Below are positions 1,287 through 35,007 of a stretch of 35,007 nucleotides of DNA, in pieces. How positions within the stretch are numbered: the first letter of the stretch is position 1; each line of letters opens with the position of its first letter. Position numbers and translations under genes: made by a program. This DNA is from a virus (lineage: Duplodnaviria > Caudoviricetes): the IMG/VR virus record IMGVR_UViG_3300032227_000639, positions 1 to 35,007 of that record. The stretch is one strand, 5' to 3'. The notes below the pieces were generated by a model. That model did not search any database. It was not told the origin of the DNA and saw only the letters and a program-made list of their open reading frames with translations.

Positions 1287-1287
1287 A

Positions 1288-2184: not shown

Positions 2185-2194
2185 AACTTTTGTT

Positions 2195-4286: not shown

Positions 4287-5134
4287 ATATTTTTATCAAA
4301 ATAAGATTTAAAATTAGGAACTCTATCATATTGATGGATTATAAAATAAGGTTCATTATGCTTTTTAGAATATACTAATCCATCTTTAAAATAACAGTAA
4401 TCTTCTATATTTTCTATTATGGCTCCTATTTGAAAAGCCCATAAATCATTATAATTAACAATTTGACACTTATCTTTTAATAAAGTTTTTGTTAGTATAT
4501 TAAATGAAGGTTGATCAGCATGTCCTATATTATTAGACATTAGATATATAATAAGACATAAATCTTTACAAATTGTAGATTTACATGCAAATGTACCTAC
4601 ATTAAAAACAAAATCATCTTTTAATAAGTATTCATACACATATGGTCCAAAATTAATAAGAGCATTATTAGTATTCCAATCTTGATTAGAATATAAAACT
4701 CCCTCGGAAGGCACTAGTATTTCATTAGTCATATTTTTATCTAACCATTCGGATGGGTTTTTTTGAAATACAACATCTCTACCATCCATAAAGATAATCC
4801 TTTCATATTCTTCTTCAATTTTATTTTCTGTAAAATATTGCCATAAATGAAAAAGTCTTACATTATGAATTAATTTATTAGCATTACCATTATTAACATA
4901 TCCAGAGTGCCATAAAAAATTAGTTTCTATTTCTGCTCTATATGTATTTTGAGGCTCTAAAGTTAAAACTCCTAAATCATTTAACTTATGTATGTACTCT
5001 TTATTATTATTAAAATTATAACATATAAATAAAATATCCCCAGAATAATTAGTTTTCTTTAAAGATCCTATCCAATTTTTTATATCTGTCCATTCGTAAT
5101 TTTCACTTATTGTAGAAACTATTAAATCTTTCAT
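4283..5134 (-). CDS. putative GT-A fold glycosyltransferase
   Basis: MDGRDVVFQKNP, DQPSFN, HQYDR motifs. Confidence 0.6.
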   Translation of the reverse strand: MKDLIVSTISENYEWTDIKNWIGSLKKTNYSGDILFICYNFNNNKEYIHKLNDLGVLTLEPQNTYRAEIETNFLWHSGYVNNGNANKLIHNVRLFHLWQYFTENKIEEEYERIIFMDGRDVVFQKNPSEWLDKNMTNEILVPSEGVLYSNQDWNTNNALINFGPYVYEYLLKDDFVFNVGTFACKSTICKDLCLIIYLMSNNIGHADQPSFNILTKTLLKDKCQIVNYNDLWAFQIGAIIENIEDYCYFKDGLVYSKKHNEPYFIIHQYDRVPNFKSYFDKNI

Positions 5135-6093
5135 AACTCTAAAATTTTAATTAAATTTTGTGTAATATTTGGATAAGTTACATTTTTTAAGTACCAATTT
5201 CTAGCATTTGTAGAAATGTTTTGTAACAAATTATCATCTTTAATAACTTCTTTATATTTTTGTATTACTAAACTAGCTAATTTTTCTGGATTTTTATATC
5301 TATAGGTTTCATCAAACTCGCAGTCTACAGCTATATAATGATAATCTGGTATTAAAGGATCCTCTGTTTTTGCAGCGTACTTCGGTCTTATTGTAGGTAT
5401 TCCTAATCCATATAATTCTATATCTCTTAAGCAAAAATCACCACAAGAGTAACCTCCTCCAACTCCAAAACATAAGGCTAGTTTATAATTTATGCATTCT
5501 TTAATATAAGAATCAAAAGAAATTGGATGGTATCCAAAATGAAAATCTTTTAATTGATTTGCTATATATTCTATAGCTATTCTTCTATCATATTCTACTA
5601 TATTAGGATCTTTATATATACTACCTCTCCAATATAAATCTGTATTAAGAGAAATATTTTTTCTGTAATTATAAACATCTTCATAATTTTCTAAACCAAA
5701 ATGCCAATAAGATTCAGGATAAAAGCTTGGTTTTATTTTATTTCTTAAATTTTTATCTTTTATAGTTTGATCCCACAAATCTACATTATATTGACCTATC
5801 GCAGCTCCAATAAAATTTTTAGACAAACTTAATTTTACAGATATAGTTGGTGCATCTCCAAAATCAAAAGTTTTAAACTCTTTTGTATCATCAAATTCAA
5901 ATATCAATATAGATCCTTGATTAATTAAAACATCGCAATCATTTTTATAATAGTAGTTATCATTTCCACTATATTCTTTATGCACAATATTATATATTTT
6001 ACTTAATTCTTTTATAAGGTTTTGAGTATTATGATTGTCAAATCTTTCAGAAGCTATACCTTTATGAAAAGAATATAAATTTAAAGTTCTCAT
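5131..6093 (-). CDS. putative glycosyltransferase (GT-B-like C-terminal domain)
   Basis: YWRGS, CLRDIELYGLGIP, LIPDYHY, NARNWY resemble GT-B C-terminal domains; cluster context. Confidence 0.5.
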   Translation of the reverse strand: MRTLNLYSFHKGIASERFDNHNTQNLIKELSKIYNIVHKEYSGNDNYYYKNDCDVLINQGSILIFEFDDTKEFKTFDFGDAPTISVKLSLSKNFIGAAIGQYNVDLWDQTIKDKNLRNKIKPSFYPESYWHFGLENYEDVYNYRKNISLNTDLYWRGSIYKDPNIVEYDRRIAIEYIANQLKDFHFGYHPISFDSYIKECINYKLALCFGVGGGYSCGDFCLRDIELYGLGIPTIRPKYAAKTEDPLIPDYHYIAVDCEFDETYRYKNPEKLASLVIQKYKEVIKDDNLLQNISTNARNWYLKNVTYPNITQNLIKILEL

Positions 6094-6096
6094 ATA

Positions 6097-6651
6097 CTAT
6101 TTTGTGAATTCATAATCTTCATGCACTCCTGATATTGATTGTATCATTCTATGGGATTTAAATCCTATTGAATTCATAGTTTCAAAGTAATCTTTTCTTT
6201 TTGGAGCTCCAATATTATACTCTATTCCATCAATTGGTATTTCCATTATTATCTTTTTAGCTGCTGAAAATATTCTACTTCCTCCTTTTATAATATCTAA
6301 TTCAGATCCTTGAACATCTATTTTAATAATATCAAAAAATCTATTAGGAAATAAATTGTCTAAAGTTTTTGTTCTTACTTTAATAACATCTATATTGTTT
6401 TCAGAAAAAAAATTAGTATTTTCTTTATAATAAGAAGCTCCTGTAGTTGTGGGATTATCTTTTGTTATATAAAAATCAACCTCTTTTTCTGTATCACTTA
6501 AACATTCTATATAGTACTCTACATTTAATTGCTTAAGTTTATACTCATTTTTTATATTAGCTTCTACTAAAGTAAAATCACACATAGGAAATCTGTGTTT
6601 ATTTTCAAGATACCAAAAACCATCATTTGCTCCTATATCAAGTATTTTCAT
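6097..6651 (-). CDS. FkbM family methyltransferase
   Basis: LDIGANDG, EAN, TLD, KIDVQGSEL. Confidence 0.88.
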   Translation of the reverse strand: MKILDIGANDGFWYLENKHRFPMCDFTLVEANIKNEYKLKQLNVEYYIECLSDTEKEVDFYITKDNPTTTGASYYKENTNFFSENNIDVIKVRTKTLDNLFPNRFFDIIKIDVQGSELDIIKGGSRIFSAAKKIIMEIPIDGIEYNIGAPKRKDYFETMNSIGFKSHRMIQSISGVHEDYEFTK

Positions 6652-6661
6652 ATATTTATTT

Positions 6662-7486
6662 TTATATTACTGCTCTGCCTTTCATATTTTCCCAATCTTT
6701 ATTAGTACGAACTTTTAGATTTGTATTTTTAGTAGCTAATAAAACTTCATGAATACAATCATGTTTCTGGCTAAGATGTATTAGTGCAGAAAGGTCTTTA
6801 GGGAAGCAATGTCCTCCAAAACCAAAATCTCCATCAGGTCCTGGTACAGCCCAATGGGAAGTTCCTATTCTTTGATCGTATGTAGCATATTCAATTACTT
6901 TATCGTAGTCTATGTTTAAAGAAGAACACAGTTGATATATTTCATTAGCAAAAGATACTTTTACTGATAAAAATGTATTGGTAACATATTTTACCATTTC
7001 TGCATGTGTAGAATCTGTTTTTATAATATGTGCATCAGGGAATACATTTGAAAATACTTGCTTAAGTTTTGTTGTAGCAGGTCTAGGTCCACCTAATATA
7101 ATTCTATTTTGTGAATTATAGTCTTTATCTGCATTTTTTTCTGTTAAAAACTCTGGATTAAAAACTACTGTAAGATTAGAATATGTTTTATTAAAATATT
7201 CTATTGTTCCAGGTATAATAGTTGATTTTACAATTACTATTTTATTTTTAGTTAGATTATTTATTTCTTTAATTGTGTTTTCAACTAAATCTATATTGCA
7301 AGATCCATCTAAATTCATTGGAGTAGGTAGGCAAATAAATATTATTTCACAATTTTTAAATAAAAAATCTTTATTTGAATTACATTTTGATTGATCTATA
7401 TCAAATGTAAATACATCATAATAATTTTTAAATTTTTTATAAACTGCGCTTCCTACAAATCCCTGGCCTATTATTCCTATATTCAT
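6662..7486 (-). CDS. ugd: UDP-glucose/GDP-mannose 6-dehydrogenase family protein (short form)
   Basis: GQGFVG, CLPTP, KST, NPEFL, AEMVKY, GFGGHCFPKD (catalytic Cys). Confidence 0.88.
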   Translation of the reverse strand: MNIGIIGQGFVGSAVYKKFKNYYDVFTFDIDQSKCNSNKDFLFKNCEIIFICLPTPMNLDGSCNIDLVENTIKEINNLTKNKIVIVKSTIIPGTIEYFNKTYSNLTVVFNPEFLTEKNADKDYNSQNRIILGGPRPATTKLKQVFSNVFPDAHIIKTDSTHAEMVKYVTNTFLSVKVSFANEIYQLCSSLNIDYDKVIEYATYDQRIGTSHWAVPGPDGDFGFGGHCFPKDLSALIHLSQKHDCIHEVLLATKNTNLKVRTNKDWENMKGRAVI

Positions 7487-8103
7487 ATTGTTTCGTATAA
7501 TTTATTTTGTCTTTCTTGTCTTTCTATATCTTTAGGATGAAATAAACAGTATTCTTCTGATTGTGGTAGTACTGAGTACTCTTGAAAACCATCTAACCTC
7601 TCATGTACTTTATTTATCCACTTAATACTATTCTTATTTTTCCATATTCTCCATTGATAATCTGGGAAATTAACCCAACCTTTATCATCAACTCTCCATC
7701 CCCATTTTTGGATATGCTGCTCAGTTAATTCTGATACTGTATTAATCCTAGGTACCAAAAATACATCAATTGTTTGATTGTATTCTAATATATCTGCCAA
7801 GTTAGTAATTAAATGTGTATGGGGATATTCATCTGCATCTATTTGAAATATATAGTCTTTAGTACAATGCTTACTAAGGTTATTTTTGAATGAAGCAAAG
7901 TCTTTATTAAGAGGAAATTCTATAGCATACCAATTATTTCTCATATAATCAGTACACAGTGCTTTTACTTCAGGTGTAGCTGTTAAATCTATTTGAATTA
8001 CAACTTCATCTTTAGGACGAATATTATTTTCTAACATTTCCAATAAACGTTCTAATTCAACGTGCTCGTTACAAGCGGTTATAGCATAACTAATTGATGG
8101 CAT
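7483..8103 (-). CDS. glycosyltransferase family 2
   Basis: ITACNE, IDADE (DxD), PDYQWR, VHE. Confidence 0.85.
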   Translation of the reverse strand: MPSISYAITACNEHVELERLLEMLENNIRPKDEVVIQIDLTATPEVKALCTDYMRNNWYAIEFPLNKDFASFKNNLSKHCTKDYIFQIDADEYPHTHLITNLADILEYNQTIDVFLVPRINTVSELTEQHIQKWGWRVDDKGWVNFPDYQWRIWKNKNSIKWINKVHERLDGFQEYSVLPQSEEYCLFHPKDIERQERQNKLYETI

Positions 8104-8108
8104 AATAT

Positions 8109-8555
8109 TTATTTTATATCATAGAAGCCAATATATTCACAGGCTTCAAAATAATCATTACCAAAACTTTTTAGTGTCTTAGAATCTGATTTATATTTCT
8201 TTCCTTTGAATTTAGGAAGTTCTTTTTCTTCTTCTGTGAGTTCTACACTTTTAATAGAACTCCATTCCCATTCATCTTTTGAAGCGCCATTAGCAAATAC
8301 AGTTCCTTTGCCTTCTATATTAATTACATTAGGATACCAAACTCTTCCATCTTCGTCAGTTTGTTTTATATCTTTATAAAGTTCGGGAAGTTCATTCTCA
8401 TATTTTTCAAAGTTGAATTCACTTTCACGCATCAAGTCATTTGTTTGAAAACCACAAGATAGACAAACATAAGCTTTGTGAAATTCATTTACAGGCTGAG
8501 TGTAACAAGACTCTGGAGCTTTACACTTTGGGCATGTTATTAAATTATCAGTCAT
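8109..8555 (-). CDS. hypothetical protein with zinc ribbon
   Basis: CPKC and CLSCGF pairs. Confidence 0.6.
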   Translation of the reverse strand: MTDNLITCPKCKAPESCYTQPVNEFHKAYVCLSCGFQTNDLMRESEFNFEKYENELPELYKDIKQTDEDGRVWYPNVINIEGKGTVFANGASKDEWEWSSIKSVELTEEEKELPKFKGKKYKSDSKTLKSFGNDYFEACEYIGFYDIK

Positions 8556-8874
8556 TGAGTTGTTGTTTAGTTGTATAAGTTACATTAGTGTGGTTAGGTA
8601 AATTAGTTGCTGTTGAATTACTAATCCCAGTATTTAAAACTCCGGTACCAGCAGATCTTAACCAGCTTGGTGGTGTTCCATTAGGCGGAAAAAGATCAGT
8701 GCCGGGTTTATTATACCAATCGTCTATTTCTACATCTATACCTGGATTGTCATTATAGTCTTGTACTTCATTCAATACTTCTTTAATACGATCCCATTGT
8801 TTTGGTGTAGGAGTAAAATCATTACACGCTTCTGTAAAACCTTTTAACCATATTGTAAATTCACTGGTTGTCAT
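8548..8874 (-). CDS. hypothetical phage protein
   Basis: ORF overlapping both neighbours; FTIWLKGF N-terminus. Confidence 0.55.
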   Translation of the reverse strand: MTTSEFTIWLKGFTEACNDFTPTPKQWDRIKEVLNEVQDYNDNPGIDVEIDDWYNKPGTDLFPPNGTPPSWLRSAGTGVLNTGISNSTATNLPNHTNVTYTTKQQLND

Positions 8875-10178
8875 TAGTCTACTTTTTTAAGTTTTGGTAA
8901 CTCGATCTTCTTGAGTTGCGGAAGTTGAATAGAAGTTTGTTTTGGAATTCTATCTAAGTAACTAGCAAGCAAACTTTTCATTTCATCAAACGAGAATTTA
9001 GTTCTAGATAAGTGAGATTGACGTTTAGCAAGTTCTTCATACTTAGAATACTTTTCATAGACATTCTTTAGATATGTACTTGCTTGATTAACATCTGGGC
9101 TCAACCACATGGATTCGGCCAATATTATATTTTGTACTTGGGCAGATGGGTGAACATTTTTTAACTCGCCACTAACTAAACAACAGAACTCTTGATCAAG
9201 AAAATCAACATGTCCAGACCATCCTGATACTATAATTGGTTTTTTACTAAGAGTAAATTCTAATAAAGGTCTACCAAATCCCTCACCTTTAGTTAGATTA
9301 AACATTGCTTTTACTTTAGGGTGATTATAAAGATTGTTAATGTCTTTATCATCTAATTCTCCATGGAGTAAATAAACGCTAGGTAAATCTCCACTAACTA
9401 TATTTCTAATATCATCAATTTTTTTAAGCATCTCATCACGATCCATTATACTAGATCCAGCTCCAGATGTTTTCATTATAAGTGCTGGTTTATTTTTCTT
9501 ATCTTTAAATGTTTCAAAGAATGTTTTTAACATTAAGCTAGTATTCTTTCTATCTTCACCTAATTCTCCTTGAAGCCAATGTCCTACATATAGAAAACAA
9601 AACTCTTCTTTAATCTCATCTAATTCAAGTACTAGATCAGTTTCTTCAAGATTTTCATCTTCAATATGAAAGTACTTATTTAAATCTACTCCTTCAAATA
9701 AAACTTCAACAGGTTTTTCAAGTTTAATTATTCCAAGAACTTGATTTTGTTGATCTCTCTTTTCAAATGTAGATTGTTGAAATACTTTTTTAGAATGTTC
9801 TGATGATACTAGGGTTATGTTCATTCTATTAACTCCTTCTATCCAACTAGGATCACAAATAGTAGTTTCTATACCTGCGGTCAATCCTATATTATATTTT
9901 CCAATAGGTTGAAATTCATTTGGTACAGTAATTTGAATCCAAATATCTGGTTGTTTTGGCAATTGAGGGGCTTGTAATACTAAAGGTTCTAACCAACTAC
10001 ATTCCTCTTTATTTGCTTTTATATATCCCCAAGGAGTAACTCCCCAACGTTGAGATACTATTTTAATATCATACTCGTCTTTTTTTAATTCATATAGAGC
10101 TTTAACAAAGTCTCTAGATCTAGCACCATAACCTGAATACGTGTCAATAGGACAACTAATTACGCACAACTGTTTCAT
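8874..10178 (-). CDS. glycosyltransferase family 4
   Basis: SGYG, DRKN, GEGFGRPLLE (EX7E), GWSGHVDF. Confidence 0.85.
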   Translation of the reverse strand: MKQLCVISCPIDTYSGYGARSRDFVKALYELKKDEYDIKIVSQRWGVTPWGYIKANKEECSWLEPLVLQAPQLPKQPDIWIQITVPNEFQPIGKYNIGLTAGIETTICDPSWIEGVNRMNITLVSSEHSKKVFQQSTFEKRDQQNQVLGIIKLEKPVEVLFEGVDLNKYFHIEDENLEETDLVLELDEIKEEFCFLYVGHWLQGELGEDRKNTSLMLKTFFETFKDKKNKPALIMKTSGAGSSIMDRDEMLKKIDDIRNIVSGDLPSVYLLHGELDDKDINNLYNHPKVKAMFNLTKGEGFGRPLLEFTLSKKPIIVSGWSGHVDFLDQEFCCLVSGELKNVHPSAQVQNIILAESMWLSPDVNQASTYLKNVYEKYSKYEELAKRQSHLSRTKFSFDEMKSLLASYLDRIPKQTSIQLPQLKKIELPKLKKVD

Positions 10179-10179
10179 A

Positions 10180-11622
10180 TTAATAAACTAAAGGGTGTAC
10201 AATTTTTTTTCTTTCTAACTTTTCTGTTTTAATTAATTCAAAATCTTTTTTAGGTTTGAATGTATTAATAGTTTCACTTATAGTGGATATAACATTATCA
10301 CACATGTGAGCTGCGCTCATCATAGATTCATCAGATAGTACCCACTCTCTAGCTGCCATACCTTTTCTACTTCTTTCTTCTGGAGATAAGTTATAACACT
10401 CTTCTATTGCTTTAGCAACGTCTCTAAAATCACATCTATCATCATAAATGTAAGGTGTTGGTATTGATCCTACTATACTTATATTTGTAGGAAATACAGG
10501 TAGCGCCCACTCTCCGTGCTTTTTATATTTGCCAAAATGATTTGAACAGAATTTATCATCAAAGTCAATCCACTTACCATTTTTATCTTCAAATCTCATT
10601 TGATCTTGCATACCTCCAGTAACATTGGCTATTATCATTCTACCTGCCATCATAGACTCAGTTAGAGATAGTCCCCAACCTTCATTAGAAGATATTAGCG
10701 CAGTTACATCAGACATGTTATAAAGCAAATTTATGTCTTCTGCATTAATTCTTGCATCTGAGAAATACACTTTTTGATATTCTGGATCACATATTAGATC
10801 TACCACTGCATCCAAATCTGTTCCGTTTTCATCTGCTCTTTGAGTATGCATTAGTAGTGCACATTTACTAGCTTTTTCTTTTCCTATCTCATCGCAGAAT
10901 AAAGCATACGCAGCAATCAAATCAGAAGTACATTTTCTTCTAATATTTCTAGCATTATAGAACAAAACAAATTCAGGATTAAAATCACCAAATATTTCTT
11001 TCTTCTTTTTTTCTAAAGCTTCATTTTGACTTTGCATGAATTCAGTAATGGGATAAAATATCTTCTCATTAATTCCATGAGGAACATATTTAAGAATTTT
11101 TCCTTTTACTTTATCTCCTAATACCATTTTATTAATATTAAGAGTTTGTTTTGATATAGCCATTAAGGTATCGCAAGACTCATAAAAAGATTTATTATAA
11201 AGTGGAGCAGGAAGATCATCCCAGATATTTAAATAGATCATCGGTATTTTTTTCCTAATCTCATTCTCCATTTGAAATAACCAAACCCAATATCTAGGAT
11301 CTGTAAAGAACATAATAGCATCAGGATTTTCTATTTCTATTAGCTGCCTGATTAATTCAGGAGATCCATATCCATTAGTTGGGTATATAAATACAGAAGA
11401 GTCATTGATGCCCATGATTCTATTTGTATCAGCTGAAATATCTAATTTTTTTCCTTGATCCGGGTGGTTTATTGCACCACCTAAATTTACCCAATTAAAT
11501 ACGTGAGAACTGCCTACAACTATTTCTCTAGCCATTGTAGAAATACCGCTTGTCATTCTAATATCATCACATAGAAAAAGAATCTTTTTTCTTTGTGCTT
11601 GAGGAATATAACCATTTATCAT
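10180..11622 (-). CDS. glycosyltransferase family 4
   Basis: VPHG, RNIRRK, NEGWGLSLTES (EX7E), TGGMQDQ. Confidence 0.88.
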   Translation of the reverse strand: MINGYIPQAQRKKILFLCDDIRMTSGISTMAREIVVGSSHVFNWVNLGGAINHPDQGKKLDISADTNRIMGINDSSVFIYPTNGYGSPELIRQLIEIENPDAIMFFTDPRYWVWLFQMENEIRKKIPMIYLNIWDDLPAPLYNKSFYESCDTLMAISKQTLNINKMVLGDKVKGKILKYVPHGINEKIFYPITEFMQSQNEALEKKKKEIFGDFNPEFVLFYNARNIRRKCTSDLIAAYALFCDEIGKEKASKCALLMHTQRADENGTDLDAVVDLICDPEYQKVYFSDARINAEDINLLYNMSDVTALISSNEGWGLSLTESMMAGRMIIANVTGGMQDQMRFEDKNGKWIDFDDKFCSNHFGKYKKHGEWALPVFPTNISIVGSIPTPYIYDDRCDFRDVAKAIEECYNLSPEERSRKGMAAREWVLSDESMMSAAHMCDNVISTISETINTFKPKKDFELIKTEKLERKKIVHPLVY

Positions 11623-21826: not shown

Positions 21827-23722
21827 TTAAAGTATTAAAAAGGGTTTAGTAATGATTTTCTTTTGATCTGTCATTGATAAATAGTAGTTACCTTCTCTTA
21901 AGTTAGTAGCATCTATTTTATAGTTAGTTGTTAATGCATATTCATTGCTTGATATTTTACCTAGATCTTTAACTGGGCGTCCTGTTACATCAAATATCAT
22001 AGCATTCATATTCATATTATTTCTAGGGAAAGTAACTACTAATTCAAACATACCGTTATTTGGATTAGGGCGAATTGATGTAACTACTTCTTCATCACTG
22101 CCATTATAATATCCAGGTATTCTCTTATTTGACAATGCTATTACATCTGATTGGAGTACAATATTAAATTTATCTCCATTTTGATCACCAGCATCCATTA
22201 ACTTACGTACTTTAATATAGCTAGTAATATCATTGTTGCCTATAGGAGAAAATTTAAGTTTAAATGGCATGTAGTTACCAGTTATGTATCCTGTATTTTG
22301 ATTATTCATTCCACCAAAACGAATAGTTCCTGTTTGTGCATCATGATTTACATATTGTAACCATGGACCCTGAATATTAGATACGATCTCTTCAAATTTT
22401 ACTTTACTTCTATCATAAGTCATTTCAAACTGAAGTGATGCATTTTGAAGTCCATTTGTACTAACATTCATTGGAACATATAATGGTTCACCTACATTAG
22501 CAAATGTATTAGGTATATTAACATTCAAATTACCTATAGTATTATAAGCTACTACTTCTTGGTTATTAGCATCAAATATAGGAGAAGAATGGCTTCTATT
22601 TACGTCACCTACAATTGCATACTTAAGATTAACTACTAAGTTAGATGTACCTATACTATCGTAAATAAAATTTGTTCTATCTAAAAATGCAGGCCAAGAT
22701 GACCATTGATTTTGACCTAATACTAAATCATCATATTCAGTAGCAGTAAAAACTTTAATCAATCCTGCTGTATCAATTGGTTTTAAACCAGCTACAGAAG
22801 CATAAATACCGTAAGCATCACCACCATCTAATCCAGCACTCTTATTGATATCAGCTTGTAAGTAACTCAATCCTGATTTTAGATATTGTCTTGTGTATAC
22901 TTGATTTACATCTGTATTAACAAATTCATCGTATACTTTAGCACCATCAGTTATTGTTACAGCATTATCTCTAATTGTAGTTAGATCATTAGCTGGAAAT
23001 AGTGCTTGTATTTTATATCTTGTGTTTTGTTCAATATTATCTAATGTGTAATTACCTTGAGGATCAGGAGCCACACTTGATGCTATTATACCTGTAGTTG
23101 GATCAATTGCTAATATTGTTGGTTTAGAAGTCATATTAGCAGCAAGCCATATTTTACCTGAAATAGTTAAGTTACCTTTCAAGAATACAGACATACTTTT
23201 ATTAGTAAGGTTAGCTACATTATCTCCTATTGTATTACCATCTTGAGTAAACAATCTAGCCCAGTTAATTGTAATAGAATCAGAAGCGAAGTTTGCTTCT
23301 ACTGAGTTGATTTTATACTTATTGTGTATAATGTAGGCTTGAGATCCAATTTGATTACCACTAGCTAAGATTAAATAGTTACGAGCTACAGTCCAAGCAG
23401 TATCAGATACATAAGTATAATTACCTGCGGTATAGCCTGAATATTTTGAATTATCAAATTGCTTATAGTCAATATAAGGAGTTTGAGTTGCAAATGCTAC
23501 ATCAACAGTAGTTGCAACGTGAGTTAAAAGTCTTTTCTTATATTGAAAGTCAACTTGGAATGTACGAACATCTTTACTAGCTATAGGTTGGTAATACCAA
23601 GCTACATCTAATGTATCTCCTCTTTTAACAATTGCTAGCTGTTGGAAGTGTCCGATTGAAGGTTGTTGAGCAAAAGAGGCATAACTAATTAATACTGCTA
23701 ACAGTGTTAATAGCTTTTTCAT
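21827..23722 (-). CDS. T9SS type A substrate with dockerin-like and cohesin-like domains
   Basis: signal peptide; QADINKSAGLDGGDAY..VGDVNRSHSS; SLQFEMTYD..IRFGG; C-terminal IRPNP..IFDVTGRPV..LREGNYYL..KPF. Confidence 0.8.
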   Translation of the reverse strand: MKKLLTLLAVLISYASFAQQPSIGHFQQLAIVKRGDTLDVAWYYQPIASKDVRTFQVDFQYKKRLLTHVATTVDVAFATQTPYIDYKQFDNSKYSGYTAGNYTYVSDTAWTVARNYLILASGNQIGSQAYIIHNKYKINSVEANFASDSITINWARLFTQDGNTIGDNVANLTNKSMSVFLKGNLTISGKIWLAANMTSKPTILAIDPTTGIIASSVAPDPQGNYTLDNIEQNTRYKIQALFPANDLTTIRDNAVTITDGAKVYDEFVNTDVNQVYTRQYLKSGLSYLQADINKSAGLDGGDAYGIYASVAGLKPIDTAGLIKVFTATEYDDLVLGQNQWSSWPAFLDRTNFIYDSIGTSNLVVNLKYAIVGDVNRSHSSPIFDANNQEVVAYNTIGNLNVNIPNTFANVGEPLYVPMNVSTNGLQNASLQFEMTYDRSKVKFEEIVSNIQGPWLQYVNHDAQTGTIRFGGMNNQNTGYITGNYMPFKLKFSPIGNNDITSYIKVRKLMDAGDQNGDKFNIVLQSDVIALSNKRIPGYYNGSDEEVVTSIRPNPNNGMFELVVTFPRNNMNMNAMIFDVTGRPVKDLGKISSNEYALTTNYKIDATNLREGNYYLSMTDQKKIITKPFLIL

Positions 23723-24924: not shown

Positions 24925-25524
24925 TTACTTCAATAAGTTATAATACTCTTTAAAGTGTTTGATTCTATCAGGAAGCCCAATAGTACCACCATTAACTCTT
25001 TTAGTAACTGAAGTAACTACAGCATCTGTAGCACCTTGATCTGCAATTTTATGAAGACCATTTTTATGGAAAAACCATGCAGCAGACAATAAAGGATATT
25101 TAGTAGCAACTAAATCTGGGTTATCTACGATTGATTCGGCAACGACTGCGTCGAATGCTTTATAATTATCTTTTCCAGTTAATTGAATATAGCCGCGACC
25201 ACGAAATTTCCAACCTTCTCCAGAAGCTTCAGGGCCATTACCCATTCTAGCTCCATAAACTAGGTTAGCAATTTTTTCTGGCTTACGCTCGTACAATTTA
25301 GCTTTTTCTTCTGTTGGAAAGTACTTCTTGAATATACCTAATAGACCTTTTGCTCCGTAGTTTAAATTTTCGTTAACTGCTTTAAATCCACCTGATTCGT
25401 GGCCTGCTTGAGCAAGAAAATGCGCTAGACGGAGTGGGGTATTTAATTCAAATTTAGCAATTGTGTCCGGTAGCTGTGTAATAACAGCATCAGGGATGTG
25501 ACCCTTTAACTTGTTTATATCCAT
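24925..25524 (-). CDS. glycoside hydrolase family 19 endolysin
   Basis: HFLAQAGHESGGF, ENLNY, RGRGYIQLTG, SAAWFF, VNGG. Confidence 0.9.
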   Translation of the reverse strand: MDINKLKGHIPDAVITQLPDTIAKFELNTPLRLAHFLAQAGHESGGFKAVNENLNYGAKGLLGIFKKYFPTEEKAKLYERKPEKIANLVYGARMGNGPEASGEGWKFRGRGYIQLTGKDNYKAFDAVVAESIVDNPDLVATKYPLLSAAWFFHKNGLHKIADQGATDAVVTSVTKRVNGGTIGLPDRIKHFKEYYNLLK

Positions 25525-28169: not shown

Positions 28170-28817
28170 TTAATTGAACATGTCGTAGTGCCTAGGATAA
28201 ACGTGTAAATTCGTAACAAACCAATGCATTTGACCTACTTGGTATCCTGTCTTTCTTGAGACATGTTCCATTAGCTTAGCAAACGTGTATTGGTCATTAC
28301 AGAAACCAAACACAAGATCAATGGATCTAGCAAAGACTGTGAGATGTAGTTTATCGTCTTTGATGTAGAAATTAAGTACGTCATTACAAGGAGTATCATA
28401 TTTATATCTATCTATTTCGTGTAGAATGTAATGTACAACAATTGCTCGACGTGTTTCTTTATTTCTTTTTAGTTCATCAATAACTTTGTTAAGCTGATTG
28501 TTATAATTCCAAAAGTATCCATAGTTAGAGTTTACTTCTGTAGTACCTGGTACCATCATTTGATTCCATATCTTAGCACGTTCACCGATTTCTTTAGCAT
28601 CTCTATCTCCTTTAAGATACCAATGCCATTCATATTCAGCATAATCTTGGTTAAACTTACGTCTAGGAGTTGTAATTACTTTATCTATAGGATTATCAAT
28701 AGTAAAAGAAACATTGAACTTTGCTTTAGTATTAGCAAAGTCTTCACCTGTGTCTATAATATAATGAAATAAGTTTTCAAATGCACTAGTAGGTGTTGAA
28801 TACATTTTATTGTCCAT
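28170..28817 (-). CDS. thymidylate-synthase-fold enzyme, T4 gp42 (dCMP hydroxymethylase)-like
   Basis: VNSNYG, TRRA, DTPC, RSIDLVFGFCND, LHVY; Asp at the position of ThyA Asn177. Confidence 0.8.
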   Translation of the reverse strand: MDNKMYSTPTSAFENLFHYIIDTGEDFANTKAKFNVSFTIDNPIDKVITTPRRKFNQDYAEYEWHWYLKGDRDAKEIGERAKIWNQMMVPGTTEVNSNYGYFWNYNNQLNKVIDELKRNKETRRAIVVHYILHEIDRYKYDTPCNDVLNFYIKDDKLHLTVFARSIDLVFGFCNDQYTFAKLMEHVSRKTGYQVGQMHWFVTNLHVYPRHYDMFN

Positions 28818-29217
28818 ATTGTTCTACTTCTATAAATTGTGATAAAAAGTCTATGCCTTGAGTATTTCGATATACATTCAAATATACAACTTTTTTTATT
28901 CCTGATTGCAAAATAAGTTTAGAGCAGTCTAAACAAGGACTAAGTGTTAAGTACAAAGTAGAACCATCTACAGAGTTGCCTGTTTTTGCTGCTTTTAAAA
29001 TAGCTCCCATTTCTGCGTGGATAACATAAGGTAGTGTAACATTATCTCTCTCGCAACAATTATCCATTCCAGAAGGAGTGCCGTTATAAGACATACTTAT
29101 AATATTACCATCTTTAACTAATATAGCTCCGACTTTAGATCTATTACATTTAGATAGAGTCGATATTTCTTTAGCTATATTTAAAAAAATAGTATCTAAT
29201 TTTTTTTGCGTTGGCAT
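28807..29217 (-). CDS. dCMP deaminase
   Basis: KVGA, YNGTPSG, HAE, SPCLDC. Confidence 0.92.
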   Translation of the reverse strand: MPTQKKLDTIFLNIAKEISTLSKCNRSKVGAILVKDGNIISMSYNGTPSGMDNCCERDNVTLPYVIHAEMGAILKAAKTGNSVDGSTLYLTLSPCLDCSKLILQSGIKKVVYLNVYRNTQGIDFLSQFIEVEQYGQ

Positions 29218-29756
29218 ATCCTTCCTTTTTTATATCCTTTTGGTATTTCTTTACCTTCTTTAATTAATAAATTGTCTTCACCATTAGTGTACCAATGTTT
29301 AGCGTGATATTTTCTAGGTAGTAGACCTATTCTTTTTAAATGTCCTGATTCAGCATTCTTTTTTCCTTGAGCTGCGCCACCCATCCTACAAATTTCTCTT
29401 CTAATATCTTCATTAAAAAAAGCATTTGCTTTTTTTTCTCTACATACCTCTGCTGCTTTTTTTCCTGACAATTTATGATCATGCATTGCTTGTATTTTTT
29501 TCATGAACCCAGAATCTGCATTTATCTTACCCTGTCTTTTACCATTCATAGATCTTACTTCATTAATTAGATCTTCTTTTGATATTTGACCAGATAAACA
29601 TCTCCAAGCTATAAAATCTTCTTGCCTTCCATATTTTTCCCATAATAGTTTATGTTCTTCAGCGTGTTGTTCTAATGTTACCATTTTTATATTAGTAAGA
29701 TCATCAGAACCTCCTGCATGTTTAGGAATTATATGATGCCTATACAATTTACTCAT
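29196..29756 (-). CDS. HNH homing endonuclease-like protein
   Basis: start reassigned to MSKLY; HHIIPKHAGGSDDLTN..H..EH; C-terminal WYTNG..GYKKGR module. Confidence 0.8.
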   Translation of the reverse strand: MSKLYRHHIIPKHAGGSDDLTNIKMVTLEQHAEEHKLLWEKYGRQEDFIAWRCLSGQISKEDLINEVRSMNGKRQGKINADSGFMKKIQAMHDHKLSGKKAAEVCREKKANAFFNEDIRREICRMGGAAQGKKNAESGHLKRIGLLPRKYHAKHWYTNGEDNLLIKEGKEIPKGYKKGRICQRKKN

Positions 29757-29767
29757 AAAAAATAAAA

Positions 29768-29864
29768 GGCTCAAAAAGAAATGGAGCTACGACCTTCCAA
29801 GACTTAAAGAGCCAATAAGTTTATTATAGATTGCTAGTCGTAGTAACATTCTATCTATAATAAA
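29768..29864 (-). promoter_or_regulatory. structured leader: two hairpins with complementary loops
   Basis: 12-bp stem TTTATTATAGAT/ATCTATAATAAA with loop CTACGAC; second stem GGCTC/GAGCC with loop GTCGTAG. Confidence 0.65.
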
Positions 29865-29968
29865 TATCACATCTTTTCTATTTATAAACTATCAAGTAAA
29901 TGATTAGTATCGGGTTTTATAGAGATTTGATTCTCTAATCATTTTACTGATGTTTGTTGCGCCATATT

Positions 29969-30385
29969 TTACTTATTATGTGTTTCATTCCAATAATTAA
30001 ATAATTCCTCAGTAGAAGAGGCGCACGCTCCTTCAGTTTGTCGATTATACCACAAAGAGTCTTGTATATACCATTGATTAGTAACTATCCATTCTGTAAA
30101 TTGTAACATTGTTTTTGTGTACTCTTTTAATTGGTCTTGCTGTTTAACTTCTATTTCTTCTTTACTTACTAGTTCTTGAAAATTAAGATTTAAAGCACTA
30201 ATTATAGTAAATTGAGCACCAGCAACTTCTCTCATTACATGATTGTGTTGAATTGCTTCAATAGGATGAGAATCTTTGCTCTTGTAATGCTCAGACACAA
30301 TCTCTGCTAATTCATTACATAGTTCTTTTACACGTTCAATTTTGGTGTCTACTGAAATTTTTTTGTTTTGATGTTCTTGTTTCAT
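29969..30385 (-). CDS. hypothetical protein
   Basis: start reassigned to MKQEH; the upstream part of the track ORF is A-rich leader/promoter. Confidence 0.55.
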   Translation of the reverse strand: MKQEHQNKKISVDTKIERVKELCNELAEIVSEHYKSKDSHPIEAIQHNHVMREVAGAQFTIISALNLNFQELVSKEEIEVKQQDQLKEYTKTMLQFTEWIVTNQWYIQDSLWYNRQTEGACASSTEELFNYWNETHNK

Positions 30386-30410
30386 TTTGTTTTTATTTGT
30401 TTTTATTATA

Positions 30411-30443
30411 ATAAAGATAAGAATTTTATTTTGGGTCTCCAAC
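30411..30443 (-). promoter_or_regulatory. putative Bacteroidota-type promoter
   Basis: minus strand TTG-N20-TATCTTTA upstream of 30385. Confidence 0.45.
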
Positions 30444-30480
30444 TTTATTTTCACAATTTTTAAAATGGTGTTTTTTCATA

Positions 30481-30909
30481 TTACAATCCTGTAGAACCGA
30501 ATCCACCTGAACCTCTTTGTGTGTTTCTGTTTGGTAATTCATCAACTTCTAATATATCTAGGTAACCAACTGGAATTAAAACGAACTGAACTAATTTTTG
30601 TCCCGTAACAATAGTTTGATCTTTATTAGATGTATTGATCATGTGGAGATGAACTTCTCCTTCATAGTCTTCATCTACTACACAAGCGCCTACTGATAGA
30701 CCTTGCTTAACAGCTACACCTGATTTATTAAATGCTACTAAAGCATAGCCTCTAGGAACTTGTACTCTAACACCTGATGGGATCAATACTGATTCACCTG
30801 GCTTTAGTACTACGGTTTCAAAATCCTCAGGTACATAAAAATCAATTCCTGCTGATGCCTCTGTGCCCCTATTTGGGGTCTTTACGTTTCGTAACTTTTG
30901 TATCTTCAT
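30481..30909 (-). CDS. dut: trimeric dUTPase
   Basis: AGIDF, KSG, VVDEDYEGE, VQ, RGSGGFGSTG; start reassigned to MKIQK. Confidence 0.93.
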   Translation of the reverse strand: MKIQKLRNVKTPNRGTEASAGIDFYVPEDFETVVLKPGESVLIPSGVRVQVPRGYALVAFNKSGVAVKQGLSVGACVVDEDYEGEVHLHMINTSNKDQTIVTGQKLVQFVLIPVGYLDILEVDELPNRNTQRGSGGFGSTGL

Positions 30910-31174
30910 TTTGAACATTGTTTTGATAATCATTTAGTGAAGCAATATACGCAACACAATCTAATAAATTGTCTTCTTTATGGTTATAAGCTTGTCTTGA
31001 TAACTTTAATGCAATCATACAATTGTACATATCGACTGCAGTTAATTCTTTACGACTCAATAACGATGCAATCTTGGCTGCCTCTTGCATGCCTTCTTGC
31101 ATTGGCCCATATTGACGAGCTTTTTCTTCAGATCTCTTGTAGATGATCTCGTTTGCTTGTTCTAGTATATTCAT
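30869..31174 (-). CDS. DUF6378-like small all-alpha protein (possible nucleotide hydrolase)
   Basis: ILEQANEII..R..YG, MIALKLSR, DNLLDCVAY. Confidence 0.65.
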   Translation of the reverse strand: MNILEQANEIIYKRSEEKARQYGPMQEGMQEAAKIASLLSRKELTAVDMYNCMIALKLSRQAYNHKEDNLLDCVAYIASLNDYQNNVQNEDTKVTKRKDPK

Positions 31175-31210
31175 GGAATAAATATAAAACAGAATTAATA
31201 AATGGTAAAA

Positions 31211-32098
31211 CTATTCTCCTAAGTACTTAATAATATCAGACTTATCACCCCACTCTCTTTGAGAGTCTATATCACTTGGCTTGATTGTAGGTTTAGGCAT
31301 ATTTCTAGCAACATTCCAGAACCAATTTCCAGAGTTGCCATAACGTTTCATATAGTCCCAACCTTTTGCATCATAGGTTTTGATACAATCAAATGGAGTA
31401 TCAATATCACAATCTTTAAGGAATTCTTTATGATATGCATAGAATTTAGCTCTACCTAATTCACCAGGTTGTACATTTCTTGCGACTGCCACTGCATTAA
31501 ACTTAGTATCTGGAAGTGCTATTTGAAGTGTTCTAGATAATACTCCTGTTGAGAATACGCTCCACAATTCATCTATATTTTTATCTTTAAATGCTTCATG
31601 AAATATCTTAACTCCACCTGCTACAACTTGTTCGTGTTTAAGACCAAATGGTAGATATTTTGCACCAATCTTTTGTGCGAACTCTTTTGCCCAACCATTT
31701 ATAGTTGGCATTGCAGGAGTCTTTAAGAATATTGGAGTTGCACCATCTTCAATAACACGTAGTTGATGTTCAGAAGCTTCTTTAGATGCAGGCATAAGTA
31801 GCACAAGTTTTTTATTGTACTTCTTTGCAAGATATGTAAGTGAATATGGAGCATAGCCTGTTCTTGGTGCAACATAAACTAATATATCTTCTTTTACTTG
31901 ACTGATCATGAAGTCACCCATTTTTGCTTTACTTCCGTATTGAAATTCTCCATCATCTATCACATTATAACCGTCAATTTGTTTTATTGAAAAGTCAAAG
32001 TCCGGTTTATAATCTTTTGTCATTTCAAGATAGTAGTTTAAATCTCTACCATCTGACATGTCTAAATTTGATTGATCAGTTGCTTTATTTATAAACAT
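31211..32098 (-). CDS. PLP-dependent enzyme (fold type II, TrpB/PALP-like)
   Basis: DD....YGSK (PLP lysine), VYVAPRTGYA, WSVFSTGVLSR, YDAK, FWNV. Confidence 0.75.
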   Translation of the reverse strand: MFINKATDQSNLDMSDGRDLNYYLEMTKDYKPDFDFSIKQIDGYNVIDDGEFQYGSKAKMGDFMISQVKEDILVYVAPRTGYAPYSLTYLAKKYNKKLVLLMPASKEASEHQLRVIEDGATPIFLKTPAMPTINGWAKEFAQKIGAKYLPFGLKHEQVVAGGVKIFHEAFKDKNIDELWSVFSTGVLSRTLQIALPDTKFNAVAVARNVQPGELGRAKFYAYHKEFLKDCDIDTPFDCIKTYDAKGWDYMKRYGNSGNWFWNVARNMPKPTIKPSDIDSQREWGDKSDIIKYLGE

Positions 32099-32100
32099 AA

Positions 32101-33144
32101 CTATTTTAGTTTGGTTGCAAAGTCATAATACTTATCATGACCCCATGTTTGTTTAAGAATAGAATTATTATGCATCCTACGACCGTTATTTTTAATAATA
32201 TGATCTTCAGACTGATATTCTTGAAAATAACGAACTACGTCACAAGCTCTACTATCTTCACAATCAATTGGATTTAAGTTATATCTATTAGATAAGAATT
32301 GTAGCACTTCATTAATATACTCAAACTCTTTTACTTTAGGACTAACTTTAGGAAAGATAGCTTTAATACAACGAATAGCATTTGTTCCTGCATATACCCA
32401 ACCTTTAGGATTTACCATGTTAGGAAAATATTCACCTAAGTCAGCAGCAAATGCAGTCAATACAAAATTTTGTTTTTTAAATCCAACACTATTAAGATAT
32501 TCGTTACCGATATCTGTTACTTGATAGATGTCTAATCTTTTAGTAGTAACAGCTTCGTAAATGTGTCTAACTAAACCTTCTGAATGTTCAAGAATAAAAC
32601 GTCTTAAATGCCCTCTAGTCTCGCCTTCAAAAGTGAATTGTGGAAGTAAATATCCTTTATTGTCTGTAAAAGGTGTGATGCGGTTCCTAAGGTCTTCTTT
32701 CCATTCTGGCCACGTGTATCTTTCTTTCAATATAGAATCTACAATCCAGAAATTACCGAAACCATGCGTACCCAGGATGTCCTTGATATGATCTGTCTTG
32801 TATCTAGGTACATAATTAATACCAGAACCACTTAGTCTAAATAGATAAAATAACATAAACCAATCAAACTCATCTTTTATATTATGATGTGTAAAGTGAT
32901 TGCCCATTCCTCTTAAGTCTTTTTCTTTATACCATACGGCTTCAGTAAAAGCGCAGAATGCGGCAAATCTACGATGCGCAGTATCATAAATAGGTACATG
33001 ATAAATTAAATCGTCATTAACATCTGCAAGTAAGTCTCCATCATAAGGAAGTTTAAGACTACCATGTTGTTGCATTAATAAACTACGCTTGTCGTATTCG
33101 TCTAATGCGTCAAGTAACTTTTCGTTGATAATAAATTTTTGCAT
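32101..33144 (-). CDS. aGPT-pyrophosphorylase-like amino acid:DNA transferase (HhH fold)
   Basis: LFR, F..TAFAADL, YAGTNAIRCI (cf. GPGA.RGL), DCEDSRACDVVRY (cf. E..LCE..KY), in family order. Confidence 0.6.
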   Translation of the reverse strand: MQKFIINEKLLDALDEYDKRSLLMQQHGSLKLPYDGDLLADVNDDLIYHVPIYDTAHRRFAAFCAFTEAVWYKEKDLRGMGNHFTHHNIKDEFDWFMLFYLFRLSGSGINYVPRYKTDHIKDILGTHGFGNFWIVDSILKERYTWPEWKEDLRNRITPFTDNKGYLLPQFTFEGETRGHLRRFILEHSEGLVRHIYEAVTTKRLDIYQVTDIGNEYLNSVGFKKQNFVLTAFAADLGEYFPNMVNPKGWVYAGTNAIRCIKAIFPKVSPKVKEFEYINEVLQFLSNRYNLNPIDCEDSRACDVVRYFQEYQSEDHIIKNNGRRMHNNSILKQTWGHDKYYDFATKLK

Positions 33145-34073
33145 TATTTTACAAATTCGTTTGCGAACATATAATATTTAGGCTTTAAGTGTACTGATTG
33201 CTTAGGTTCCATGTATTCAAACATCTTCATACCATCTTCATCAATCCATTCATTTGGCCATTGAAGTGTTTTAAGTCCTGAATTATTCATGATCCTATTT
33301 GCGGTATCTACCAATCTTGCTCTTTCTTGTCTTGTACCAAAATAAGCTTGTTTTAGATATAAACCTGTACCAGGTAATTTACGACTTTCATGCTCAACTG
33401 GTAACAAATTAACTATAGTAGCATTATTTAGTTTTTTAGCAAACTCTACATAATGTCTAATAAGATCTCCTACTGCTTTGGCAGGATTATTTTGCCTCAT
33501 TAAGTGAAAACGAATATCAATATTACCAAAGTAAAGAACTACTTCATCATACTTTTCATTCCACTCATCAACTAATGAGTCTGCATCTTTTAAGAAGCCA
33601 AATAAAGTTTTACCATCTGTTCTATCAAGACCAAAACCTGGTCTCCATACACTAAGTGAATGAGAATCGCCACGGACTAACTTTCTTGTATTATTTGCAT
33701 GTAGTCTAGCAAAGTCGATACAATTGATCGCAGCAAACTGATGATCAATATTAAATCTTTTATTAAAGACGTTAAGATCAATAGGAACATTAACTGCAAT
33801 AGCTAGACCTTTGTAATTAGCCATAGCTTCAAGCTTAGCTTTATGTTCAGGTTGTGGCCCTCCAATAAAATTAAACGTATTCTCTTGATAGTTAACTCCT
33901 TCTAGAATATATAGTCTTTCATATTCATTCCATATTGAAGGATCTGGATTAACATCTAAATCACCTGGATGTTCTGATTTTAGTATGTTCAACATAACAT
34001 GATAATAGCCTCCGCCGTGATGGCTTTGGCTACTACCAACATTATTGAGCATACCTACTACGGCTGCTTTCAT
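33144..34073 (-). CDS. SGNH/GDSL-like protein
   Basis: GDSHS, YFGNID, terminal SVH. Confidence 0.55.
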   Translation of the reverse strand: MKAAVVGMLNNVGSSQSHHGGGYYHVMLNILKSEHPGDLDVNPDPSIWNEYERLYILEGVNYQENTFNFIGGPQPEHKAKLEAMANYKGLAIAVNVPIDLNVFNKRFNIDHQFAAINCIDFARLHANNTRKLVRGDSHSLSVWRPGFGLDRTDGKTLFGFLKDADSLVDEWNEKYDEVVLYFGNIDIRFHLMRQNNPAKAVGDLIRHYVEFAKKLNNATIVNLLPVEHESRKLPGTGLYLKQAYFGTRQERARLVDTANRIMNNSGLKTLQWPNEWIDEDGMKMFEYMEPKQSVHLKPKYYMFANEFVK

Positions 34074-34093: not shown

Positions 34094-35007
34094 TTACATT
34101 CCCATAGTCATGTCCATCATAGGATCTGACTTGTCGTTCTTTTCTTTCTTTTCGAATACAACAGACTCAGTTGTCAAAATAGTTCCGGCTACTGATGTTG
34201 CATTCTTAAGTGCGGTAATAACAACTTTAGCTGGATCAATAATACCTGATTCAAACGCATCTACCATTTTATGATTCTTTGCATCATAAACTTGTCCAAT
34301 GCTAGGAATATTCTCAAACCAATTCTCAATACCTGCATTAGATAAGATCTTTTTAAATGGTGCTTGTAAAGCGTTACGAACAATATCTCTAGCAATTGCT
34401 ACATTGCTATTGCTTTCTGATCTATGATTAAGTGCTACTCTATAAAGTGTTGCACCACCACCAGGTACGATACCATCAGCAAGAGCGGCTTTAGTTGCAA
34501 ACAATGCATCTTCTACACGATCTTTCTTTTCTCTAATCTCAATATCACTATTACCACCTACAGAAATAATTGCAACACCACCAATCAACTTACCAAGTCT
34601 TTCTTGCAACTTTTCTTTCTCATAAAATGATGTAGCTTTTTCAATCTGCTCTTTTATTTCTTCTGCTCTAACTTCAATTGCTCTCTCATTACCTTTACCA
34701 TCAATGATAGTAGTCTCTTCTTTAGATACAGTTACAAGTCTTGTTGTACCAAGATATTGAGCAAGTTGTTGTGTAGACAATTTATCAAGCTTCAGACCTT
34801 TATCTTTAGAAATAACTTGTCCACCTGTTAAGATAGCAATATCTTCTAAGATCAATGTTTTACGCTCACCAAAATCTGGCGCTTTAACTGCACAAACCTG
34901 TACAATACCACGCATTTTATTTACAATCAATGTAGCAAGAGCTTCATCACCAATATCTTCAGCAATAATCAACAAAGGTCTATTTTCTGAATTTGCTTTA
35001 GTCAATA
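34094..35007 (-). CDS. groEL: chaperonin GroEL, C-terminal part (5' end outside window)
   Basis: LLIIAED, AVKAPDFG, EKLQERL, DRVEDAL, GIVPGGG, GIIDPAKV, Met-rich tail. Confidence 0.97.
   Translation of the reverse strand, partial: LTKANSENRPLLIIAEDIGDEALATLIVNKMRGIVQVCAVKAPDFGERKTLILEDIAILTGGQVISKDKGLKLDKLSTQQLAQYLGTTRLVTVSKEETTIIDGKGNERAIEVRAEEIKEQIEKATSFYEKEKLQERLGKLIGGVAIISVGGNSDIEIREKKDRVEDALFATKAALADGIVPGGGATLYRVALNHRSESNSNVAIARDIVRNALQAPFKKILSNAGIENWFENIPSIGQVYDAKNHKMVDAFESGIIDPAKVVITALKNATSVAGTILTTESVVFEKKEKNDKSDPMMDMTMGM

Follow-up and report, generated by a model that had tools for sequence, protein, structure and literature searches.

Here, we describe a phage gene module that probably carries out some hypermodification of 5-hydroxymethylcytosine (5hmC) in DNA, as encoded in the 35,007-nucleotide record IMGVR_UViG_3300032227_000639 of IMG/VR, analysed whole (hereafter the window). 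Its front consists of three genes, for an SGNH protein, a helical protein with the fold of the aGPT-Pplase or amino acid:DNA transferases (AADT), and a fold-type II pyridoxal 5′-phosphate (PLP) enzyme, and these are accompanied by a thymidylate synthase (TS)-fold enzyme. We propose that the SGNH protein acylates 5hmC, that the transferase swaps the ester for an amino acid and that the PLP enzyme decarboxylates the adduct, a scheme that, taken whole, comes close to an even chance in our judgement. The parts of the known M6/ViI-type systems are a dUMP hydroxymethylase, a 5-hydroxymethyluridine DNA kinase (5-HMUDK), a clade-2 aGPT-Pplase/AADT and a PLP decarboxylase, as described in the accessible parts of PMC8989533 and PMC11472151. 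In the window, the SGNH stop and transferase start overlap by one base (TAATG) and the transferase and PLP genes are 2 nt apart, which bears out the tight coupling proposed in an earlier reading made from the letters alone (the sequence-only reading). Pfam and NCBIfam gave no match of their own for any of the three front genes. The four genes at the centre of our argument are:

33144..34073, minus strand: SGNH protein, 309 amino acids (aa), with two domains, a weakly BGT-like N-domain and an SGNH domain (AlphaFold2 model, fold search)
32101..33144, minus strand: aGPT-Pplase / amino acid:DNA transferase-fold protein of a new clade, 347 aa (AlphaFold2 model and fold search; Glu296...Cys301)
31211..32098, minus strand: fold-type II PLP enzyme, 295 aa (PHROG 7093; profile match to M6 gp52; Lys57)
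28170..28817, minus strand: dCMP hydroxymethylase-type TS-fold enzyme (Pfam thymidylate synthase, 1e-26; Asp141/Cys144/Asp167/Asp175)

The TS-fold enzyme points to cytosine. The diagnostic residues given in the accessible part of PMC13326640 are N177D for dCMP, L143D/E for hydroxymethyl transfer and D169N for hydroxylation. Asp141, Cys144, Asp167 and Asp175 of the window enzyme fall at ThyA positions 143, 146, 169 and 177, and the identical set is found in T4 gp42, its best match in the PDB (E 2.4e-19). Asp175, at the N177 position, is the residue of dCMP specificity, and Asp141 at L143, the catalytic Cys144 and Asp167, which is not Asn, are those of a hydroxymethyl-type enzyme and not of a 5-hydroxy synthase. 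Canonical ThyA, 5-methyl-dCMP synthase and 5-hydroxy-dCMP synthase are ruled out by these residues, and the cytosine-type signature seen in the sequence-only reading stands, with Asp at all three published diagnostic positions. On the basis of these positions, the window enzyme likely makes 5-hydroxymethyl-dCMP, unlike the dUMP enzyme of M6, which has a D/C/D/N pattern with Asn at N177. The fetched loci, the window and the control together gave 172 distinct TS sequences, of which 155 read D/C/D/D, 11 are canonical L/C/D/N second copies of ThyA and 5 are cut by contig ends. The D/C/D/N pattern of dUMP hydroxymethylases is absent from the module-linked TS, the M6 control being its sole case among the 172. 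A search for a second ThyA, as proposed earlier, found a separate Asn-type ThyA in close relatives, for instance 1.6 kb downstream of the Asp-type gene in L001, whose transferase is 99% identical to that of the window. The closest cultured relative of the window enzyme, at 45% identity, is the second TS of Bacteroides phage BF503P2, in which both TS-fold genes share a locus (L213:609-6672) with a carbamoyltransferase-like and a P-loop kinase-like gene.

The AlphaFold model of the transferase (predicted local distance difference test (pLDDT) score 94.6) finds in BFVD an AADT-domain protein (E 8.8e-13, template modelling (TM) score 0.73) as well as Pplase1 and HMUDK-helical proteins, and 7 of the 11 top rows carry AADT, Pplase1 or HMUDK names. 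In the PDB it matches PaMx11 gp46 (8z2m; Z 8.6, root mean square deviation (rmsd) 4.4, 209 aligned), and helix-hairpin-helix (HhH) glycosylases come next after gp46 and queuine enzymes. The active residues of gp46 are Glu243 and Cys247, according to the accessible part of PMC11472151; Glu296...Cys301 of the window protein lies near the same end and is equivalent as judged by motif and position, with a spacing one residue longer than that of gp46 in the window subclade and the same as that of gp46 in the wider family. Among 234 distinct homologues, all but two have this motif. The protein thus shows both marks of the aGPT-Pplase/AADT superfamily, an HhH-glycosylase-like fold and a Cys with a nearby Glu, and its earlier description as aGPT-Pplase-like holds, with the addition that the model and searches place it in a new clade of aGPT-fold enzymes, outside clade 2 by sequence. 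Indeed, all 111 homologues lack a Pfam match to clade-2 AADT (PF18724), 3 of the 111 match HMUDK_hel weakly, PHROGs hold no family for the transferase, and 50,697 cultured-phage records gave no match to the window transferase, to a distant family member or to a 334-aa paralogue. Clustering at 50% identity leaves 114 family representatives, and genes of a paralogous clade (hhalign probability 92.5%) often lie beside the transferase gene. A second cluster, very common in IMG/VR, joins an HhH-GPD glycosylase with the transferase and/or the SGNH protein and the 334-aa paralogue, which has an EDxxC motif (L199:2116-5632 in contig G004; L179:15384-18266 in contig G003).

The PLP enzyme matches PHROG 7093 (E 2.6e-26) and, by hhalign, M6 gp52 (probability 95%, E 3e-8, 190 columns), and with these two matches the fold-type II PLP enzyme of the sequence-only reading is confirmed. 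Lys57 and the S183-T184-G185 loop are invariant in 42 of 42 homologues, and 10 of its 11 weak PDB matches are cysteine synthases. M6 gp52 is a proven decarboxylase of the amino-acid-base adduct, and by analogy we predict that role for the window enzyme. Matches in cultured phages are confined to three records, in ParB/methyltransferase settings: the homologue is inserted in or beside a ParB-like and DNA methyltransferase gene in Erythrobacter phage vB_EliS_R6L (gp1; L052:7801-10230) and Microcystis phage Mae-JY30 (L053:7375-9693), and these possibly represent another PLP-dependent DNA modification.

In the AlphaFold2 model of the SGNH protein (pLDDT 94.4), residues 124-306 match SGNH esterase and O-acetyltransferase structures (best Z 11.9, rmsd 3.1, 164 aligned). 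S137, G154, N184 and H295 are invariant in 84 of 84 SGNH sequences, so that the fold comes with the Ser, Gly (Gly154/159), Asn and His of blocks I, II, III and V; block V has the sequence SVH, in which the customary Asp is missing, and Glu289 is invariant. The SGNH-like gene noticed from sequence therefore has all four catalytic residues, and its fusions and its constancy as a partner, described below, tie it to the pathway more strongly than was then apparent. Searching PDB sequences with the SGNH alignment as query returned noise only. The N-domain bears a weak but colinear resemblance to the N-terminal domain of T4 β-glucosyltransferase (BGT; hhalign probability 72%, E 3.3e-5, 85 columns; Foldseek E 1.1e-3), and 1 of the 84 members matches the BGT family PF09198, at 0.078. 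T4 BGT is specific for 5hmC, and the likeness, weak as it is, counts towards cytosine as the substrate. In BGT, the N-domain handles the flipped base; its C-terminal nucleotide-sugar domain is not present in the SGNH protein, where the C-domain is SGNH. We predict that the protein is a 5hmC-DNA O-acyltransferase; the SGNH fold alone does not separate acyl transfer from hydrolysis. An estimated 940-1100 stretches in IMG/VR match the SGNH patterns.

Comparison of loci, on the basis of homologue scans that kept the best 80 matches each, indicates that the module is real and widespread. The order DUF6378-SGNH-transferase-PLP-TS, or a permutation of it, recurs in close and distant loci. An aGPT-fold gene lies within 4 kb of 104 of the 111 distinct SGNH genes that have 4-kb flanks (82 of those also have PLP), seven of the 111 have PLP only and no adjacent transferase, and, conversely, SGNH lies within 4 kb of 92 of 104 transferases; many of these loci are near-identical or related, so the counts are not independent events and overstate independence, which has to be held against our proposal. 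SGNH-transferase fusions occur in eight library representatives and TS-transferase fusions at eight loci, all without an adjacent PLP gene. Where the cluster is split (contigs G003, G004 and G006), the SGNH, transferase and PLP genes were each found somewhere in the contig; G004, which begins inside the cluster, gave no TS. The DUF6378 gene, whose product is a possible dNTP pyrophosphatase, accompanies the module in 153 of 170 clustered loci. A 228-aa lipoprotein-like gene often stands directly before the PLP gene (L005:2150-2836 and 40 other loci).

Known transferases require a kinase, according to the accessible part of PMC8989533. The sequence-only reading saw none in the window, and indeed the motif GxxxxGK[ST] is absent from every frame. 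Because the window is the whole of its source record, a 35-kb fragment only, the absence was tested in relatives, and the wider search that had been suggested found none there: PF18748 (5-hydroxymethyldeoxyuridine (5-hmdU) kinase) matched nothing in nine viral contigs (five of them at least 90% complete) and three cultured phages, with the M6 control positive at 1e-19. Furthermore, a Pfam scan of 181 of the 214 open reading frames (ORFs) of G003, those of 90-900 aa, found no kinase, and no 5-hmdU kinase family is among the frequent neighbours of the module. P-loop scans of G001-G004 and the module neighbourhoods returned recombinase, PhoH-like, clamp-loader and similar proteins, together with one zeta-like protein (G001) and one dTMP-kinase-like protein (L312).

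A sister arrangement places the SGNH protein in relief. Of the 232 distant loci compared, 28 have a helical enzyme of the type found in Aeromonas phage 44RR2.8t; every one of these 28 carries an inositol-1-phosphate synthase (Ino1) together with a HAD-like gene, and a PLP gene is missing from all of them. Ino1 is found in none of the 197 with window-type clades, and SGNH stands beside all 26 distinct 44RR-type proteins. As SGNH is kept while the transferase and co-substrate genes swap, it is the constant part, in the place that the kinase holds in thymine pathways. An E-x-x-x-C motif is present in 24 of 25 copies of the 44RR-type domain, and the copy in 44RR matches PF18723 weakly. The sister module (L301-L311, L381-L449; for example, L444:9905-14455) comprises SGNH, inositol-1-phosphate synthase, the HAD-like gene and the 44RR-type helical enzyme, with an FkbM-type methyltransferase or, in L441, a BGT homologue as extras; inositol-5hmC is its candidate product. 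In 44RR2.8t itself, an SGNH-helical fusion lies beside a sodium:solute symporter (L050:6309-10289, ORF234c-233c) that may import the co-substrate, and this phage offers a model of the system in culture. The accessible part of PMC2993671 describes the T4-like Aeromonas phages 44RR, 31 and 25 as having gp42 and no glucosyltransferase, and as carrying gp42, gp56, denB and alc, the cytosine-replacement set.

Put together, these observations suggest the following route. The Asp-type TS would turn dCMP into hydroxymethyl-dCMP (hm-dCMP), as its residues strongly indicate, and host enzymes would see to phosphorylation and incorporation, or substitution would be partial, no phage dNMP kinase having been seen in G003; DUF6378 might, at a guess, remove dCTP. 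The SGNH protein would then O-acylate 5hmC in DNA, with acetyl-CoA as the simplest guess for the donor, and the resulting leaving group would replace the phosphate of the kinase, as linkage and kinase absence suggest. From its fold and motif, the transferase would attack C6 through Cys301, the acyl group would be lost to give an exocyclic methylene, and the amino acid would attack there, possibly through the hydroxyl of serine by analogy with ViI, leaving the α-amine free for PLP. The PLP enzyme, in line with its homology to gp52, would release CO2 from the adduct to leave a base of the 5-(2-aminoethoxy)methylcytosine type, which would protect the DNA against nucleases. The sequence-only reading had arrived at an amino-acid-derived modification of 5hmC with a possible acyl step; the fold, the cytosine-type TS and the failure to find a 5-hmdU kinase in near-complete relatives support its outline, while an amino acid in the product and a step of acyl transfer are still predictions. 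More broadly, a base-flipping SGNH protein that acylates 5hmC may spare these phages the kinase and give interchangeable aGPT-fold transferases a common platform for adding amino-acid-derived groups (window) or inositol (sister loci, 44RR2.8t), a generalization that we hold to be possible at somewhat under an even chance. A reading that unites phages with and without a transferase has SGNH esterify the hydroxyl at C5: the ester would be the end product in those that lack the transferase and the leaving group in those that have it.

Several results weigh against the proposed route. By fold, two queuine salvage enzymes (Z 9.0 and 8.9) score level with gp46, whose Z of 8.6 is only moderate for a protein built of helices; by sequence, hhalign gives the transferase a probability of 1.2% with the proven clade-2 M6 gp51 and 0.3% with ViI gp247, and the weak matches lean to clade 1 (M6 gp55, probability 6.7%; PF18723 in the Atlas), whose member M6 gp55 is dispensable (accessible part of PMC8989533). 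The 44RR-type domain has no detectable homology to the window clade (hhalign probability 4%), the PLP profile has no match to ViI gp226, and the BGT resemblance is weak, its HMM score of 10.7 bits being beaten by 1 of 1000 shuffles. The Asp-type enzyme is the only TS found in G001, G002 and G003 (the ThyX family was not searched), which would rely on the host for dTMP, and G003 has no Pfam-detectable dNMP kinase. In Aeromonas phage 25, SGNH stands behind a UDP-galactopyranose mutase and a probable GT-B glycosyltransferase, with no detectable transferase, galactofuranosyl-5hmC being the candidate product; this locus (L211:2776-6047) is at the same site, motA to nrdC.10, and its glycosyltransferase is without a Pfam match. 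Tenacibaculum phage PTm1 likewise has SGNH without a detectable transferase, and its TS carries D169N and N177D, the 5-hydroxycytosine type; as 5-hydroxycytosine has no methylene to displace, SGNH is no activator in PTm1. Both transferase negatives are insensitive, since the window-type profile misses the 44RR helical domain too. The PTm1 TS lies beside kinase-like and histidine-phosphatase genes (L216:71-2082), and the lone SGNH homologue is elsewhere (L051:9797-10816).

The first among the alternatives is one that we consider unlikely: the transferase would join a nucleophile to unactivated 5hmC, the PLP enzyme would trim the adduct, and SGNH would add a last O- or N-acyl cap to the amine, inositol or sugar. 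Such coupling has a precedent that counts against a need for activation, in that M.SssI, an enzyme with a Cys that attacks C6, couples thiols to unactivated 5hmC (accessible part of PMC7176277), and the PaMx11 pathway ends with an acetyltransferase (accessible part of PMC8989533). A final cap also fits SGNH beside the sugar genes of phage 25 and the 5-hydroxycytosine-type TS of PTm1. However, the inositol variant implies an oxygen nucleophile, for which, on chemical reasoning, unactivated loss of water is unfavourable, and the capping of substrates as different as amines, cyclitols and sugars would all fall to a single conserved SGNH active site.

It is improbable, in our view, that SGNH instead forms the final bond itself, by placing an acyl or aminoacyl ester on 5hmC in a manner resembling carbamoylation, with PLP trimming or supplying the acyl group and the helical protein as a clade-1-like accessory. 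The seven SGNH genes with PLP and no adjacent transferase would suit this, as would the resemblance of the transferase to clade 1 and HMUDK_hel, with M6 gp55 dispensable, and the position of the closest cultured TS (BF503P2) with a carbamoyltransferase-like gene. Against it, Glu...Cys is retained in all but two of the 234 homologues, the sole split genome of this kind read whole (G004) has its transferase elsewhere, and the helical clade changes along with the inositol or PLP partner. Lower still we rate activation of 5hmC by another enzyme, an unrecognised kinase or a NodU-type carbamoyltransferase, with a side role for SGNH, for example as an editing esterase. G001, G002 and G003 do encode a carbamoyltransferase-like protein, G001 a zeta-toxin-like P-loop protein, and unannotated ORFs are plentiful; yet the carbamoyltransferase lies far from the module, among glycosyltransferases, and has no match in G004, the P-loop protein is in G001 only, and neither candidate is fused to the transferase or accompanies it.

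A uracil-type base, with dCMP deaminase converting hm-dCMP to hm-dUMP and thymidine positions being decorated, is very improbable: the window deaminase gene overlaps the TS gene and every proven transferase acts on 5-hmdU, but an adjacent deaminase is missing at many loci, 44RR, 31 and 25 carry the cytosine-replacement set (accessible part of PMC2993671), and the N-domain of SGNH is weakly BGT-like. That the trio is concerned with cell-surface or metabolite chemistry and is merely near nucleotide genes is scarcely credible, for, despite the many glycan-modifying genes of these phages and the mostly metabolic SGNH and fold-type II PLP families, it fails to account for the TS-transferase fusions, the HhH DNA-enzyme fold, the homology to M6 gp52 and the linkage in unrelated genome backgrounds.

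The window as a whole is a 35-kb phage fragment of 25-34% GC content whose long ORFs are almost all on the minus strand. All genes named in the sequence-only reading (the three front genes, DUF6378-like, dUTPase, dCMP deaminase and TS-fold) are present where it placed them, all on the minus strand; two ORFs that it did not list are inserted between the dUTPase and dCMP deaminase genes. The remaining features of the module region are:

30869..31174, minus strand: DUF6378 protein (Pfam 2e-13)
30481..30933, minus strand: dUTPase (Pfam 5.1e-25)
29969..30454, minus strand: unassigned ORF, an insertion outside the conserved module (matched no other locus in the locus comparison)
29196..29774, minus strand: HNH homing-endonuclease-like gene, an insertion (PHROG 655, E 3.5e-6)
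28807..29217, minus strand: dCMP deaminase (Pfam 1.1e-24)

The HNH gene was found at the same place in only one other contig (L030/L110) among the loci with maps inspected; its insertion, with an AT-rich non-coding leader, precedes the dCMP deaminase gene (window 29196-29970). Elsewhere in the window are a GH19 lysin (24925-25524), a GroEL gene cut by the window end (34094-35005) and a protein with a C-terminal sorting domain of the type IX secretion system (T9SS; 21827-23722). The closest cultured TS relatives are those of Bacteroides phages, and these and the T9SS domain suggest a Bacteroidota host, as far as sequence can tell. Glycosyltransferases, FkbM methyltransferases and a UDP-glucose dehydrogenase form a run at 31-11622, probably for glycans of the virion or host surface; this cluster was rejected as part of the module, being distant and having no tie to it in distant loci. 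The relative G003, near-complete at 183 kb, is a myovirus whose capsid, portal and sheath genes are T4-like and whose polymerase belongs to family A.

In the literature that we surveyed, amino-acid hypermodifications are all on thymine and are begun by a DNA kinase, and the decorations of cytosine are sugars or carbamate. No SGNH or aGPT enzyme acting on 5hmC is described in the literature searched, which did not cover subscription papers, and within that scope the system is as uncharacterised as the sequence-only reading supposed. The accessible parts of PMC13458397 hold nothing on such enzymes and those of PMC8056088 leave these genes unnamed. In the accessible part of the MetaGPA supplement, Thymidylat_synt is enriched, and aGPT-Pplase1/2, Lipase_GDSL_2/_3, PALP and Inos-1-P_synth are not significant after correction, which is uninformative because Pfam misses these proteins. 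If true, our proposal would add amino-acid-derived cytosines, including a base that still lacks a chemical description, and an SGNH enzyme that acts on DNA; the broader platform would amount to a whole new family of cytosine bases and a novel class of DNA-acting enzyme. It makes testable what 44RR, 31 and 25 place on 5hmC, and enzymes that derivatise 5hmC could serve epigenetic mapping.

Compared with known systems, the module resembles the thymidine hypermodification of M6, ViI, PaMx11 and PhiW-14 (PMC8989533, PMC11472151) in its HhH-type transferase with Glu...Cys, its PLP enzyme homologous to M6 gp52 and its upstream TS-fold hydroxymethylase; it differs in that the window TS is of the dCMP type, 5-HMUDK is undetected, the transferase falls outside clade 2 and SGNH is a constant partner. 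With the T-even 5hmC pathway (T4 gp42, gp56, α- and β-glucosyltransferases) it shares the dCMP hydroxymethylase signature, and the N-domain of SGNH bears a weak likeness to BGT, whereas the module is without a DNA glucosyltransferase, and in G003 the polymerase is of family A and Pfam detects no dNMP kinase. The 5-carbamoyloxymethylcytosine pathway (TS homologue and carbamoyltransferase; PMC8670742) is similar in the O-acylation predicted here for the 5hmC hydroxyl, and the BF503P2 TS lies near such a gene; its acylating fold is another, and the ester here is predicted to be an intermediate. A further relation is to the uncharacterised ORF233c of phages 44RR2.8t and 31 (795 aa), in which the same BGT-like/SGNH domain, at 29% identity and a TM score of 0.84 to the phage 31 model, is fused to an aGPT-like domain; unlike the window, these phages have another helical clade, no PLP homologue and a sodium:solute symporter alongside.

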